Assembly (NCBI GenBank): GCA_001303885.1
Contig: LJUE01000149.1
Location: 1 to 14,071, forward strand
DNA length: 14,071 nt
Direction: 5' to 3'
Source of the DNA: Planctomycetes bacterium SM23_32
Lineage (GTDB): Bacteria; Planctomycetota; Brocadiia; SM23-32
The notes beneath the pieces were generated by a model. That model worked only from the letters and a program-made list of their open reading frames with translations, ran no database searches and was not told the DNA's origin. The translations under genes and the position numbers were made by a program. Shown in pieces: positions 6,333 through 10,601 of this stretch; the stretch's first letter is position 1, and the number at the start of each line of letters is the position of its first letter.

Positions 6333-7173
6333 AGGCAGACCGCAGTCGCTCCTGCTTCGAGAGCATCAGCCAGTCGTAGGCGAGCGCCGCCATCGTGCCG
6401 ACCACCAGCAGTGCGGCAGCCCACCACGTGTCCACTCGGAACCCCAGCATGGCATAGGCGGCGAGGCCGGCCACCAGGGCCAGCCCCAGCAGCATGGCCA
6501 GGTTTGCGGCATTGGACTCGGCCGCCAGGCCCCGGCCCGTCAGGGGGATCAGCACCAGCGGCAGAAGCACAACCAGGGCGAGCCAGCTTGCCAGCCTTGC
6601 GGGCCACGGGTATGCGCGTACGCCGGACTGCGGCCGGCCTGACTCCGCCGCGTCGCCGGCCCGGCCCGTCACACGGACGGGCGGCGCCGTTTCGCGCAGG
6701 GCGATGAGCACGCCTTCCAGGACGGCCTCCTCGGTCTCTTCCGTAGCCGCCAGCCGCGCCACTCGCCCCACCAGGGCATAGTCGGCGTCCAGAGTCCCGA
6801 GGTCCGCCCCTGCGATCGCATCGGGCGAAAGCGCCTCCTGTTCGAGCCCGAGTTCGTCGCGGAGGTTCTCCACGAGGTCGGCCGGCTGGACGGCGTAGCG
6901 GCCGGCCCTGTCAACGGCGCGTCGCACGGCGTCCGTCACGAAACCCGTCGAGTCCCCCTCGAACCGCGCCACAGCGACGGTAGGCCGCCCGCTCGCCGGG
7001 GCGGGCAGGGAGCGCGCCACCTCGGCAGCCGCCGCTTCCGTCAGCTCGCGGCGCCGGGCGTCGAGCGGGAACGGCTTCGGGCGCACGACCATCCATCCCT
7101 GCCAGGCCGCCACGGCCACCAGCAGCGGCACCGCAATGCGCGAGTTCAGTATCTTACCGATGAGCCGAAACAT
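6331..7173 (-). CDS. Polytopic membrane protein, unknown function (N-terminal TM helix, about 150-aa soluble region, three C-terminal TM helices)
   Basis: ATG at 7173 (MFRLIGKILNS) with GGGAGG about 10 nt upstream. Hydrophobic stretches IAVPLLVAVAAW, LASWLALVVLLPLVLIPL, LAMLLGLALVAGLAAYAMLGF, WWAAALLVVGTMAALAY. The start overlaps the 3' end of the upstream AAA gene by 20 nt. Confidence 0.7.
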   Translation of the reverse strand: MFRLIGKILNSRIAVPLLVAVAAWQGWMVVRPKPFPLDARRRELTEAAAAEVARSLPAPASGRPTVAVARFEGDSTGFVTDAVRRAVDRAGRYAVQPADLVENLRDELGLEQEALSPDAIAGADLGTLDADYALVGRVARLAATEETEEAVLEGVLIALRETAPPVRVTGRAGDAAESGRPQSGVRAYPWPARLASWLALVVLLPLVLIPLTGRGLAAESNAANLAMLLGLALVAGLAAYAMLGFRVDTWWAAALLVVGTMAALAYDWLMLSKQERLRSA

Positions 7174-8149
7174 GGCTTGTGCGCCTCCCGCCGTCCTGCG
7201 CCCAGCGCAGGTAGGCTTCCTCGTCTTCAGGCGAGACCGAGGGCTTCATCGAGGCCACGATGCCGCCTATGTCGTCCATGCCGATGTCCCGGGCGGTGCC
7301 GGTACGGATGCTCTCCACGAACGCGCGCGCCCCGGCCCGCTCGCACAGGTCGGCGATGTCCGCGCCGCTGTAACCGGCCAGCTCCTCGGTCAGCGTGTCC
7401 AGATCCACGTCGTCCGCCAGCGGGCGAGCCGCCAGGTAGAGCTCCAGCATCCGCCGGCGGGCTTCGGCGTCGGGCAGCCCCACGTAGACCTTGGCATCGA
7501 ACCGGCCCGGCCTGAGCGCCGCCGAGTCCACCGCCCACGGTTCGTTAGTGGCACCCAGAAACAGGAGCGTCCCCTCCCGGCCCCGGAAGCCCTGCAGCTC
7601 GGCCAGCACCTGCGGCACCACGCGCTGCATGACCGAGGAGCTCGAGCGGCGCCGTGCCGGTATGAGCGCCTCTACCTCGTCTATGAACACCACGGCGCGT
7701 CCGCAGGCGCGGGCCTCCTCGAAGAGCCGCTCGACGTTCTGCTCGGCTTCACCGACCCACTTGGACATCAGCTCGGAGGGCTTGGCCGTGAAGAAGGCGG
7801 CGTCCACCTCCCCGGCGATAGCCCGTGCCAGCAGCGTCTTGCCCGTGCCCGGCGGCCCGAACAGCAGCAGCCCGCCGCCCTGTCGCACGCCGTAGCGCGC
7901 GGCCGCCTCCGGGTACTGCAGGGGATATATGAGCCGCAGGCGGGCCTCCTCTTTGGCCTCCTGGAGGCCGGCCACGTCGTCGAAGCAGACGTCCGCCGGC
8001 TCGCGCACCAGGAACGCCGGCTCGCCCTCCTCGACGGCCACGCGGGCCGCCCGCAGGTAGTGCAGTCTTGCCCCCGCATAGTCGTGCGCCTGGCGGGCGC
8101 TCGACGCCTTGTTCAGGTACTCCAGGGATTTCTCCAGCAGGAGCTTCAC
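7154..8149 (-). CDS. MIT-domain AAA+ ATPase of the meiotic clade (Vps4/katanin/spastin-like), copy 1
   Basis: GTG start at 8149 overlaps the TGA of the upstream Snf7-like gene (GTGA). N-terminus LEKSLEYLNKASSARQAHDYAGARLHYLRAARVAVEE is MIT-like (compare Vps4 [34 protein letters not shown]). Walker A LLLFGPPGTGKTLLARA. ELMSKWVGEAEQNVERLFEEAR matches DLVSKWMGESEKLV of Vps4. Walker B VVFIDEVEAL. ALRPGRFD second region of homology. C-terminus MKPSVSPEDEEAYLRWAQ matches the spastin/katanin/Vps4 C-terminal RPSVSPxDLxxYxxW motif. Confidence 0.85.
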   Translation of the reverse strand: MKLLLEKSLEYLNKASSARQAHDYAGARLHYLRAARVAVEEGEPAFLVREPADVCFDDVAGLQEAKEEARLRLIYPLQYPEAAARYGVRQGGGLLLFGPPGTGKTLLARAIAGEVDAAFFTAKPSELMSKWVGEAEQNVERLFEEARACGRAVVFIDEVEALIPARRRSSSSVMQRVVPQVLAELQGFRGREGTLLFLGATNEPWAVDSAALRPGRFDAKVYVGLPDAEARRRMLELYLAARPLADDVDLDTLTEELAGYSGADIADLCERAGARAFVESIRTGTARDIGMDDIGGIVASMKPSVSPEDEEAYLRWAQDGGRRTSHVSAHR

Positions 8150-8739
8150 TTCATCTCCTTGCGCATCTGCTCTTCGACTTCCGTCAGCCCCCGCGCGATC
8201 CTCTCGTCGTAGGCCTGCGCCTCGTCGGCCTCGGCCTCGCCCTCCATGGCCTGTGCGATTTCGGTCAGCTCCTCTTCGTCCGCCTCCTCGGCGCCGAACA
8301 CCGAATCGGCGCTGGCGTCCATGGCCAGCGCCAGCATGTCGTCCACGGCCTGCGCTCTGGTCAGGGCCTCTTCCATGCGGGCCTGCATGGACGCTATCTG
8401 GCCGGGCTCGGCGCCGCGCATCATGGACTTGGTGGTGGCGGCGATGGCGTCTATGAACTCGGCGACGGTGGCCGACTCCTCCTTGCGCACGCCGAGCGTC
8501 TCAAGCTGGAGCAGGTAGCGCTCCCATCGTCCCAGGAGGTCCCGCGTGCGTATGTAGGCCCCGGCCAGGTGTCGGAACTGCTCCCGGTCGCCCAGGCGCA
8601 GGGCTTCCTTGCCGAGCCGCCAGTACTTCTTCTGCACCTTCTGCGCGTTCTTGATGAAGCGCTTTATCCTGGCCTTGCCCTGCCTGAGCTTGATCTCCCG
8701 CTCAAGCTCGCGCTGCCTCTTGGACTTGAAGAGTGCCAT
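8146..8739 (-). CDS. Snf7-family ESCRT-III-like protein (CHMP3/Vps24-like), copy 1
   Basis: 197 aa. ATG at 8739 with GAGGGAG about 7 nt upstream. Basic N-terminal half MALFKSKRQRELEREIKLRQGKARIKRFIKNAQKVQKKYWRLGKEAL. Helix ATTKSMMRGAEPGQIASMQARMEEALTRAQAVDDMLALAMD parallels CHMP3 QKSTEVMKAMQSLVKIPEIQATMRELSKEMMKAGIIEEMLEDTFE. Strongly acidic C-terminal region ends in an amphipathic MIM-like tail DERIARGLTEVEEQMRKEMK. Charge asymmetry and length are typical of Snf7/CHMP. Confidence 0.8.
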   Translation of the reverse strand: MALFKSKRQRELEREIKLRQGKARIKRFIKNAQKVQKKYWRLGKEALRLGDREQFRHLAGAYIRTRDLLGRWERYLLQLETLGVRKEESATVAEFIDAIAATTKSMMRGAEPGQIASMQARMEEALTRAQAVDDMLALAMDASADSVFGAEEADEEELTEIAQAMEGEAEADEAQAYDERIARGLTEVEEQMRKEMK

Positions 8740-9939: not shown

Positions 9940-9947
9940 CGGACACC

Positions 9948-10601
9948 TCAGAGATCGGGCTCGTCGGGCTCCGCGGCTGCGGATGTCTCTCCACGCTCTC
10001 TCAGTATGTGGTCCACCCGGGCTCTGGCGGCCTCCACGTCCTCGCTCCGCCCCGCCTCCTCGGCTGCCCTGGCCTGCTCCATCGCCTCTACTATGCCGAG
10101 CACGTCGGCGTCTTCCTCCACCTCGGCCGTGTCCATTGCGCCTTCGAGTGCGCCGAGCAGCGTGGTGAACTTCTCCATCTCGAACTGGCCTTCCACCGTG
10201 GCCCTCTCGACGTACTCGGACAGCTCCGACAGCGGCATCTTGGAGACGACGGAGCCGACCTTCAGCTCGTCCAGGAGCGCCATGTTCTCCTTGATCTGAA
10301 GCAGGCCGTCCACGATCCGCAGGTGCTTGTTGAACAGGGCCAGTTGCTGCGCCTTGGCCCGGGCGCGCGAGTCGAGCTGCTTGATCTTGCGGGCCACCAT
10401 CACGCGCCGGCGCTGGCTGGCCTCATTGGTCCCCTCAGCGAACAGCTTCTGCTTCTGAGTGTCCAGGTCGTCCACCTCCCGGCCGAGCCGCCTCTCCATC
10501 TGCTCAATGCGGATCTGCTCGCGCTTCAGTTCGTCAACCGTGATGTTCTCAATCCGGTTCCCACGGTCAATGAGGCTCTTGATCCTGTCCAACAGAGACA
10601 T
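9948..10601 (-). CDS. Snf7-family ESCRT-III-like protein (Snf7/CHMP4-like), copy 2
   Basis: Preferred start is the ATG at 10601 with GAGGAGGAG 5-6 nt upstream. The track's 10616 start is a GTG that overlaps the kinase stop as GTGA. MSLLDRIKSLIDRGNRIE...QIRIEQMERRLGREVDDLDTQKQKLFAEGTNEASQRRRVMVARKIKQLDSRARAKAQQLALFNKHLRIVDGLLQIKENMALLDELK parallels CHMP4 KKIEQELTAAKKHG...ALKRKKRYEKQLAQIDGTLSTIEFQREALENANTNTEVLKNM. Acidic C-terminal half with a terminal helix EDVEAARARVDHILRER. Confidence 0.8.
   Translation of the reverse strand: MSLLDRIKSLIDRGNRIENITVDELKREQIRIEQMERRLGREVDDLDTQKQKLFAEGTNEASQRRRVMVARKIKQLDSRARAKAQQLALFNKHLRIVDGLLQIKENMALLDELKVGSVVSKMPLSELSEYVERATVEGQFEMEKFTTLLGALEGAMDTAEVEEDADVLGIVEAMEQARAAEEAGRSEDVEAARARVDHILRERGETSAAAEPDEPDL

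Follow-up and report, generated by a model that had tools for sequence, protein, structure and literature searches.

The 14,071-nt stretch analysed here (the window, from contig LJUE01000149.1) belongs to the metagenome-assembled genome (MAG) of a sediment planctomycete, 'Planctomycetes bacterium SM23_32'. It carries on its minus strand two consecutive gene pairs, each encoding a small protein of about 200 residues, which we call E3-A and E3-B, followed by an AAA+ ATPase, AAA-A and AAA-B. We find that these genes are part of a conserved bacterial ESCRT-III/Vps4-like system, which is real and has a new architecture: two cognate pairs, a divergent subunit, a fusion combining winged-helix (wH), kinase and anti-sigma parts, and SPFH and FGE-sulfatase partners. 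Judging from the sequences, the locus probably encodes a regulated bacterial ESCRT-III/Vps4-type polymer-and-disassembly machine of two polymer/ATPase pairs. An initial annotation, made from the DNA letters, had inferred an archaeal- or eukaryote-style system of ESCRT-III and MIT-AAA proteins in a bacterium. This view is supported by the Snf7 match of E3-B, by the MIT profiles of the ATPases and by AAA-A scoring best on Vps4.

The four open reading frames (ORFs) lie on the minus strand where the initial annotation had placed them: E3-A (217 aa; 10601..9948, from the ATG at 10601 to the TGA at 9948, with a product equal to the NCBI protein), AAA-A (392 aa; 9939..8761), E3-B (197 aa; 8739..8146) and AAA-B (331 aa in the window; 8149..7154). 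The junctions are also as described, with an 8-nt gap between E3-A and AAA-A and a GTGA overlap between E3-B and AAA-B, and 21 nt separate the two pairs. Each small-protein gene is probably translationally coupled to its ATPase gene. Seven further short contigs, of JGI, ENA and Logan origin, encode the E3-B protein in identical form, so that its gene is not a one-off product of assembly; six of them were included among the loci compared here.

By its sequence, E3-B is a Snf7-family ESCRT-III protein. It matches the Pfam family Snf7 (PF03357) with 35.2 bits against a gathering score of 27.3, over residues 17-173 and model positions 5-157 of 171, and gives no match to PspA_IM30 (PF04012) at E <= 0.1. 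Its family comprises 61 clusters in 5.8 billion sequences; 38 of the 61 are annotated with PF03357 and none with PspA_IM30. Against all PDB sequences, the family profile matches CHMP3 and CHMP1B only (E 0.016-0.42), in collinear, nearly full-length alignments covering CHMP3 residues 7-162. On unvalidated reference sequences the profile gives 19.4 bits for CHMP3 and 12.6 for CHMP1B, while 180 shuffled sequences reach at most 3.7. This preference for CHMP3 and CHMP1B over shuffles points to an affinity with the A-type (Vps2/24/46) class. The N-terminus has the form MALFK/MGLFK, with MGLFK conserved in the family, and a conserved amphipathic helix, D-x2-I-x2-G-L-x2-(I/V)-E-x2-MRKE, lies at the C-terminus (hydrophobic moment, muH, 0.52). 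The MIT-interacting motif MIM1 has the consensus (D/E)xxLxxRLxxL(K/R). The tail of E3-B, D178-x2-I181-x2-G-L185-x2-V188-E...MRKE, has the spacing of this consensus and differs from it at two charged positions. MIM1 is characteristic of the Vps2/24/46 class (PMC7240154).

E3-A is far more divergent. It matches no Pfam or NCBIfam model, and neither do its 48 family clusters, PF04012 included. PDB sequences yielded nothing, by single sequence or by profile, and on unvalidated CHMP, Snf7, PspA and Vipp1 sequences the E3-A profile stayed below shuffled controls. A comparison with the E3-B family by hhalign showed no relation either (probability 1.2%). The claim that both small proteins are of Snf7 type therefore stands for E3-B but finds no sequence match for E3-A in Pfam or the PDB. 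Neither protein gives a PspA_IM30 match at E <= 0.1. The basic-N/acidic-C charge split described for both was confirmed: in E3-A the N-terminal half has an isoelectric point (pI) of 10.3 and the C-terminal half of 4.1, and in E3-B the corresponding values are 10.6 (aa 1-98) and 4.1 (aa 99-197). E3-A also has an amphipathic N-terminal helix (muH 0.63) and a C-terminal helix conserved in its family.

The AlphaFold2 model of E3-A has a predicted local distance difference test score (pLDDT) of 86 and contains helices at 3-12, 22-58, 63-105, 142-160, 165-183 and 186-208. Helices 22-58 and 63-105 form a long hairpin, which is followed by the further helices. When this model was compared by Foldseek with 350,542 PDB chains, 30 of the top 50 matches were ESCRT-III, CdvB, PspA or Vipp1 structures, all with E >= 0.47. 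The alignments to this superfamily extend over about 140-226 columns and most of the length of the chains, with TM-scores of 0.17-0.39 and no significant E-value. CdvB2 and CdvB are among the best structural matches, and PspA and Vipp1 structures are also listed. By predicted fold only, E3-A very probably belongs to the ESCRT-III superfamily.

Among the two ATPases, AAA-A is the one closest to Vps4 in sequence. Its N-terminus (aa 6-74) is an MIT-type three-helix bundle, followed after a linker by a single AAA cassette; the lid contains a helical insert, and the protein closes with a C-terminal helix. The motifs GPPGTGKS, DELE, ATN, R276 and SKWFGES are intact and form invariant columns in the family alignment; one of the two adjacent arginine fingers of Vps4 is kept ('SRF' vs 'RRF'), and the second region of homology (SRH) lacks 'PG' (LSRFGRRVYVPLPD), as in Vps4. 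In the structural model (pLDDT 91), the N-terminal helices 6-25, 29-47 and 53-74 have mean pLDDT values per 10 residues of 84-97, a disordered linker connects the bundle to the cassette, and the C-terminal helix spans 383-391. A helical insert of about 20 aa occupies the place of the Vps4 beta domain. With reference sequences confirmed by exact look-up, phmmer scored AAA-A at 164 bits on Vps4, 156 on VPS4B, 143 on p97-D2, 136 on spastin, 131 on katanin, 122 on PAN and 88 on FtsH. The BLAST alignment to VPS4B begins at residue 19 of AAA-A and residue 17 of VPS4B, inside the MIT domain, and the identity is 37% to yeast Vps4 and 32% to human Vps4 with the MIT region included. The top NCBIfam model is CdvC. 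In a crude neighbour-joining tree (Kimura distances, 100 bootstraps), which includes a Sulfolobus CdvC row that failed exact look-up and was flagged as unvalidated, the AAA-A family is sister to Vps4+katanin+spastin with a bootstrap of 59.

The two ATPases have several features in common. Walker A and B, sensor-1, the arginine finger and the 'SKW.GE' pore loop are invariant, the catalytic motifs are intact, and the C-terminal helix ascribed to both is present as 'P(S/D)(V/T)S...W'. A profile of the N-terminal ~85 aa of 27 family ATPases matches the MIT domain of an oomycete chitin synthase (2mpk, E 1.7e-6) and, over its full length, the MIT domains of VPS4B, VPS4A and SKD1 (E 7e-4 to 6e-3); NRBF2, calpain-7 and yeast Vps4 are matched as well. 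Vps4_C is found in 23 of the 27 family ATPases (best E 9.4e-7). On the two window proteins the NCBIfam model CdvC reaches 159 and 197 bits, far under its 650-bit equivalog cut-off. Makarova et al. (2024) define Vps4 by an MIT domain or by ESCRT components encoded nearby (PMC10936438), and both ATPases count as Vps4-family on these criteria because their family carries MIT-type N-termini and each follows an ESCRT-III or ESCRT-III-like gene. By sequence affinity, only AAA-A is clearly Vps4-family.

AAA-B has a single AAA cassette, AAA_lid_3 and a C-terminal helix of the Vps4_C type, and its C-terminus, KPSVSPEDEEAYLRW, is of the spastin/katanin/Vps4 kind. Its nearest relatives are a large bacterial set of AAA proteins of ~365-390 aa, many with Vps4_C and one with Pfam MIT. 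Orthologues of AAA-B measure 362-373 aa, compared with 331 aa in the window. The difference goes back to an in-frame deletion of 135 nt at about 8048/8049, by which 45 MIT residues are gone: five other, independently assembled contigs (L002-L006 in our locus numbering), which otherwise match almost perfectly, carry 45 aa between 'HYLRAA' and 'RVAVEEG', namely ESLFKAGARSKGRMRAIRTAKAEELLELARRLEGRARIERTGSPA. The full N-terminal domain, about 75 aa in the orthologues and in these five assemblies, was included in the profile that matches MIT domains. An exact look-up found no record of the 331-aa product of the window, and the deletion could reflect either strain variation or an error of assembly.

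Several results weigh against reading the locus as an ESCRT-III/Vps4-type machine. The SRH of AAA-B is the classical 'LRPGRFD', and phmmer places this ATPase nearer to other AAA proteins (p97-D2 186 bits, p97-D1 182, FtsH 166, PAN 164, Vps4 161). The NCBIfam scores have the same tendency, with CDC48 at 224 and PAN at 202 bits ahead of CdvC at 197, aligned over model positions 87-365 of 370. The tree gives AAA-B no firm placement (bootstrap 22-48). The 45 aa found elsewhere complete MIT helices 2-3, most of which the window copy lacks, and about two helices are left in its N-terminal domain. Neither ATPase has a Vps4 beta domain, as seen in the motif alignment and the AAA-A model; Pfam MIT was undetected in both window ATPases by single-sequence scan, Vps4_C reaches 14.3 bits in the window proteins and stays below its cut-off of 21.3, and the N-terminal profile also matches designed TPR proteins. 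Finally, the system is rare, as patterns for E3-B found 18 loci in 185,579 species genomes. Two further statements of the initial annotation hold in part. The Vps4-like SRH given for both ATPases is seen only in AAA-A; in AAA-B the SRH is of the classical type and the pore loop reads SKWVGEA rather than GES. The MIT-like domain is modelled as a three-helix bundle in AAA-A but is incomplete in the AAA-B of the window.

The distribution of the operon speaks for two specific pairs. The 18 loci belong to Pirellulaceae, Thermoguttaceae, Planctomycetaceae, a MAG labelled 'Brocadiaceae', many Dehalococcoidia and one Candidatus Eisenbacteria. No cultured carrier is among them. They are a lower bound, because the divergent loci L030 and L033 were found only via their ATPases. 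The synteny proposed as a check was found: the double module occurs in Planctomycetota, in Dehalococcoidia (L017, L018, L019, L022, L024, L027), in Eisenbacteria, and in L030 and L033. Three planctomycete loci (L008, L010, L015) share the order sigma factor, kinase, E3-A, AAA-A, E3-B, (AAA-B), transmembrane (TM) protein, Zn-ribbon/SPFH protein, followed by DUF4384, Zn-ribbon/FGE-sulfatase, PP2C or U49, and an FHA-kinase. AAA-B is missing from L015, and L029 has only E3-A, AAA-A and E3-B. In L030 (ENA ERZ21831104, a 4.05-Mb contig of 47% GC; 6433..14419) the order is wH, E3-B, AAA-B, E3-A, AAA-A, a 443-aa protein and SPFH. The pairs thus stay together even when their order is swapped, so that each small protein keeps its own ATPase, and this permutation is the best evidence for specific pairing. 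The suggestion of two specialised polymer/ATPase pairs agrees with this behaviour, which extends across phyla. Some Dehalococcoidia loci contain additional E3-A paralogues.

Further arrangements were observed around related genes. In some Dehalococcoidia, a third type of ATPase follows E3-A (L022:8717-9955, L024:1466-2677, L027:4088-5245); it has an MIT-like N-terminus, an SRH reading 'RRSGRFD', 'DKYVGES' in place of SKW, and another C-terminal extension without a helix of the Vps4_C type. Three kinase-TPR-FGE-sulfatase genes come after SPFH in L030. Two loci from Chloroflexi-type MAGs, L031 and L032, hold AAA-B relatives with MIT-like N-termini near kinase-FGE-sulfatase and PQQ beta-propeller proteins; in L031, an E3-B homologue lies about 4 kb upstream of the ATPase, with a 1200-aa kinase-like gene between them. 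This arrangement suggests a wider, looser family of such systems. In another Chloroflexi MAG (GCA_016210565.1; L007/L025, 996..4364), a nucleotidyltransferase/HEPN pair and a VapB/PIN toxin-antitoxin pair stand between the E3-B homologue and its ATPase, and proteins with GOLD (EMP24_GP25L) domains and a kinase-PKD-GOLD protein follow.

The genes upstream of the pairs contain a second conserved element. The 774-aa kinase fusion (12937..10613, minus strand) consists, from N- to C-terminus, of an anti-sigma zf-HC2 motif (20 bits, below the cut-off), a Ser/Thr kinase (Pkinase, E 2.5e-49), a Cys-rich stretch, a conserved globular domain and a winged-helix-like domain; an 11-nt gap containing a Shine-Dalgarno sequence separates it from E3-A. 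Its last ~270 aa, about aa 500-770 (window about 10616..11440, minus strand), form a conserved module made of the globular domain, in which the motif 'SP.G(W/F)' is invariant, and the winged-helix-like end. A profile search with the central globular domain matched nothing, and the last ~55 aa gave weak matches, all of them to winged-helix proteins (E 0.08-1.5). In other lineages it aligns with stand-alone proteins encoded just upstream of E3-A (L017:1078-1887, L030:6433-7665, L033:2197-3420; in L030 the E3-B pair lies in between). Planctomycetes have the module joined to a kinase, Dehalococcoidia to a coiled coil, and L030 and L033 to HTH_17.

The operon comprises at least 10 genes, all on the minus strand, from the ECF sigma factor to the Zn-ribbon/FGE-sulfatase protein. 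Its first gene, the sigma factor (13608..12934; Pfam Sigma70_r2, E 1e-15, and Sigma70_r4_2), overlaps the kinase fusion by 4 nt and has orthologues at the equivalent position in L008, L010 and L015. Downstream of AAA-B, and overlapping it by 20 nt, lies the gene for a 280-aa membrane protein with four hydrophobic segments (7173..6331; segments 4-22, 190-219, 220-247 and 252-272). This protein matched no Pfam family; it is kept in planctomycete loci, with orthologues of 50% identity in L010 and L015. After a gap of 48 nt comes a 540-aa Zn-ribbon/SPFH protein (6282..4660), built from a double Zn-ribbon (Pfam DZR/Zn_Ribbon_1), an SPFH/Band-7 domain (Band_7, E 1.4e-6), a long charged coiled coil and a C-terminal Zn-ribbon (Zn_ribbon_15). 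Its gene is kept downstream of the module in L008, L010, L015, L028, L030 and L033. A further 60 nt on, a 526-aa Zn-ribbon/TM protein (4599..3019) has a weak N-terminal DZR match and one long hydrophobic hairpin (segment 259-300), and tblastn found no match to it in any related locus examined. The last conserved gene visible encodes a Zn-ribbon/FGE-sulfatase protein at the window edge (1456..~32), for which tblastn gave 59% (L008) and 49% (L010) identity over about 455-490 aa. The other companions across the loci are kinases, FHA, PP2C and FGE-sulfatase-domain proteins.

A 589-aa ORF listed at 1213..2982 (minus strand) reads in large part like an out-of-frame artefact of high GC, and a separate 193-aa ORF at 1557..2138 ends in a double Zn-ribbon. 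Zn-ribbon or Cys-rich motifs occur in at least five operon proteins (4660..6282, 3019..4599, 32..1456, 1557..2138, and the kinase at ~aa 415-470), and recur likewise in related loci as DZR and Zn_Ribbon matches. A divergent Ser/Thr kinase gene begins at ~13820..14071 on the plus strand (MAKFGPYEILTKLGEGGMGRVYKA...) and leaves the window at its right edge; together with the operon's own kinase it shows how densely kinases surround the locus. The bacterial character of the neighbourhood, as initially described, was confirmed by the ECF sigma factor, the zf-HC2/Hanks-kinase protein and the GC content of about 70%, which is even across the window (0.65-0.73). Orthologues of the operon adjoin GGDEF/HDOD and other bacterial genes. 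An origin of the contig in archaeal or eukaryotic contamination, raised initially as a possible objection, was rejected in view of the sigma factor within the operon, the even GC and the recurrence in bacterial MAGs near GGDEF/HDOD genes; the operon is kept in MAGs of at least three bacterial phyla.

These features suggest how the machine might work. The small proteins would form polymers on the inner membrane, at its cytoplasmic face, and bind it through the basic hairpin and an N-terminal motif, which is 'MGLFK' in E3-B and the amphipathic helix in E3-A. The C-terminal helix of each would be captured by the MIT domain of its own partner, and the ATPase hexamer would thread and extract subunits, so that the polymer is turned over or remodelled in the manner of Vps4/CdvC. 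The upstream winged-helix module could nucleate assembly or serve as an adaptor, in the manner of the wH proteins encoded ahead of ESCRT-III in archaea, and the Zn-ribbon SPFH protein could provide a membrane platform. The ECF sigma factor, the anti-sigma/kinase fusion and the further kinases would make assembly and expression dependent on signals. Within this reading, stress-triggered membrane repair or remodelling is a tentative choice of role, at somewhat less than even chances; we prefer it because of the ECF sigma/anti-sigma context and the known link between PspA and SPFH proteins. Vesicle formation or a part in division may be alternatives. FtsZ is often absent in planctomycetes; a general role as its replacement in this group was considered and is unlikely, the system being rare and present in Dehalococcoidia as well.

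Other explanations start from the weaker parts of this picture. One possibility, which we regard as unlikely, is that only E3-B with AAA-B (or with AAA-A) is ESCRT-like, and that E3-A recruits or regulates AAA-A rather than forming a polymer. E3-A indeed has no sequence similarity to Snf7, PspA or E3-B, the region 107-140 of its model is atypical in having short helices and beta bridges, and Makarova et al. (PMC10936438) describe hairpin proteins encoded ahead of vps4 whose membership in ESCRT-III is not clear. However, the ESCRT-III-superfamily structures that make up 30 of the top 50 Foldseek matches align with E3-A beyond the hairpin alone; the protein is like E3-B and other ESCRT-III proteins in size, charge split, N-terminal amphipathic helix and conserved C-terminal helix, and it has extra paralogues in some loci, as ESCRT-III proteins do. 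Less probable still is a PspA-like envelope-stress module served by generic Cdc48-type unfoldases with TPR-like N-domains, whose likeness to Vps4 would be convergent or superficial. The ATPases would then be machines for protein quality control or extraction, with membrane proteins bound to the SPFH scaffold as one example of a substrate. The core of AAA-B, nearest to p97 D1/D2, FtsH and PAN with RPGRFD in its SRH, would fit such a function, as would the TPR designs matched by the N-terminal profile and the ECF sigma/anti-sigma pair, which suggests an envelope-stress regulon. According to earlier work cited by Makarova et al. (PMC10936438), bacterial SPFH proteins partner with FtsH-type proteases and PspA. 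Pfam and NCBIfam scans, however, found no protease domain or protease partner in the operon. Moreover, E3-B matches Snf7 and not PspA_IM30, natural MIT domains align over the full length of the N-terminal profile, AAA-A scores best on Vps4 with the MIT region included in its VPS4B alignment, and the one-to-one adjacency of small protein and ATPase is kept across phyla and under permutation.

The surroundings of the module would also allow a conflict or anti-phage system, in which kinases and FGE-sulfatase-domain proteins act as sensors and the ESCRT-like module repairs membranes or perturbs them in abortive infection. Ser/Thr kinases, FHA, PP2C and FGE-sulfatase-domain proteins do lie around the module, PADLOC gives matches for the kinase (PD-T4-6) and for the ATPases (IetA, TRIP13), and toxin-antitoxin genes are inserted in one Chloroflexi locus. 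But these PADLOC matches reflect generic kinase and AAA similarity and do not extend to the E3, SPFH or membrane proteins; the Pfam scan of the window showed no nuclease or other typical effector, and the flanks examined had no defence-island hallmark. We consider this explanation very improbable. As for ancestry, the system could represent an old bacterial ESCRT-III/Vps4 lineage of its own, in which polymer, MIT-AAA ATPase, wH nucleator and SPFH partner were associated before the archaeal-bacterial split or were acquired very early and later diversified within bacteria. In its hosts it would then drive scission, as in budding, division or vesicle release, rather than simple repair; we give this little weight. 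A recent transfer is argued against by the remote similarity of the E3 proteins to archaeal and eukaryotic ones (E3-B reaches CHMP3 at E 0.016, by profile), and word-indexed searches returned no archaeal or eukaryotic protein at E <= 0.001 for either E3 family.

Archaea have systems with striking parallels to this locus. Archaeal ESCRT loci encode a wH protein upstream of ESCRT-III, Ser/Thr kinases and phosphatases, SPFH proteins with a coiled coil and Zn-ribbons, and GOLD domains (PMC10936438). As in the 'Main' and 'Meth_adaptin' clades of euryarchaeal ESCRT, an ESCRT-III gene lies here directly upstream of an MIT-AAA gene of Vps4-like type, accompanied by an upstream wH protein, Ser/Thr kinases, and an SPFH protein with coiled coil and Zn-ribbons. 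In the published description, arCOG09748 has a coiled coil, then a globular domain, and a wH at the C-terminus (PMC10936438), a layout that the wH proteins of Dehalococcoidia resemble. GOLD domains are common to the archaeal loci and the Chloroflexi locus L007. The euryarchaeal systems differ in that the host here is bacterial, two distinct pairs each have their own ATPase, E3-A is beyond sequence detection, and the wH forms one protein with a kinase and an anti-sigma motif, in an operon headed by an ECF sigma factor. The operon also includes FGE-sulfatase-domain proteins, whereas adaptin-appendage and Cas2-like/DUF3568 proteins were not detected. Crenarchaeal Cdv offers another prokaryotic pair of ESCRT-III and MIT-AAA proteins with several ESCRT-III paralogues, but the present system has no CdvA/PRC-barrel gene, no wH fused to an ESCRT-III protein, and two ATPases instead of one. 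CdvB uses MIM2 and is without MIM1 (PMC7240154), unlike the MIM1-like tail of E3-B.

Eukaryotic and Asgard systems resemble the present one in that E3-B is nearest to the A-type subunits CHMP3/Vps24 and CHMP1B/Did2, which carry MIM1, and in having two ESCRT-III types per system, as in Asgard ESCRT-IIIA/B. In contrast to them, ESCRT-I, ESCRT-II, ubiquitin components, the Vps4 beta domain and Vta1 are all missing here. The bacterial members of the superfamily, PspA, Vipp1 and LiaH, share with our system the association with SPFH/Band-7 proteins and envelope-stress regulators, and the amphipathic helix at the N-terminus of E3-A is similar to helix alpha0 of PspA/Vipp1. Apart from the missing PspA_IM30 matches, the partners differ, being MIT-AAA ATPases of the classical or Vps4 type; the ATPase partner of PspA, PspF, is a transcription factor unrelated to Vps4 (PMC7619361). 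Ravi et al. (2024, PMC11237479) reported VPS4-like ATPases transferred to several bacterial phyla, Planctomycetes included, and interpreted them as acting next to the membrane. An unrelated TPR-6TM gene takes the place of snf7 in those operons; the same authors also report divergent bacterial Snf7 homologues elsewhere, alongside a double-AAA protein. The operon described here, unlike those, has kept and duplicated the Snf7-type and ESCRT-III-like genes, along with wH, SPFH and kinase partners.

In the review literature, a Vps4-like ATPase appears absent in bacteria (PMC7619361), and bacteria are described as having no clear Vps4 homologue (PMC7615534). From this absence the authors infer that Vps4-driven dynamics of ESCRT-III arose in archaea and that PspA/Vipp1 work without such an ATPase. 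The initial annotation likewise gave PspA, Vipp1 and LiaH as having no Vps4-type partner. VPS4-like ATPases without a Snf7 partner had already been reported in bacteria (Ravi et al. 2024). Our search of full-text literature, with subscription journals outside its coverage, found no paper that links ESCRT-III with Planctomycetota or Chloroflexota and none on this operon.

A conserved bacterial operon with a Snf7 protein, an ESCRT-III-like protein and two MIT-AAA ATPases qualifies the picture of a bacterial ESCRT-III that is free of Vps4, and it offers a bacterial system in which remodelling by a polymer and its ATPase becomes testable. The two pairs also present a natural experiment on one-to-one specificity between ESCRT-III paralogues and dedicated ATPases. 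The accessory set shared with the euryarchaeal systems, namely the upstream wH, the SPFH protein with Zn-ribbons and the Ser/Thr kinases, ties the bacterial system to them and bears on the age of the partnership.

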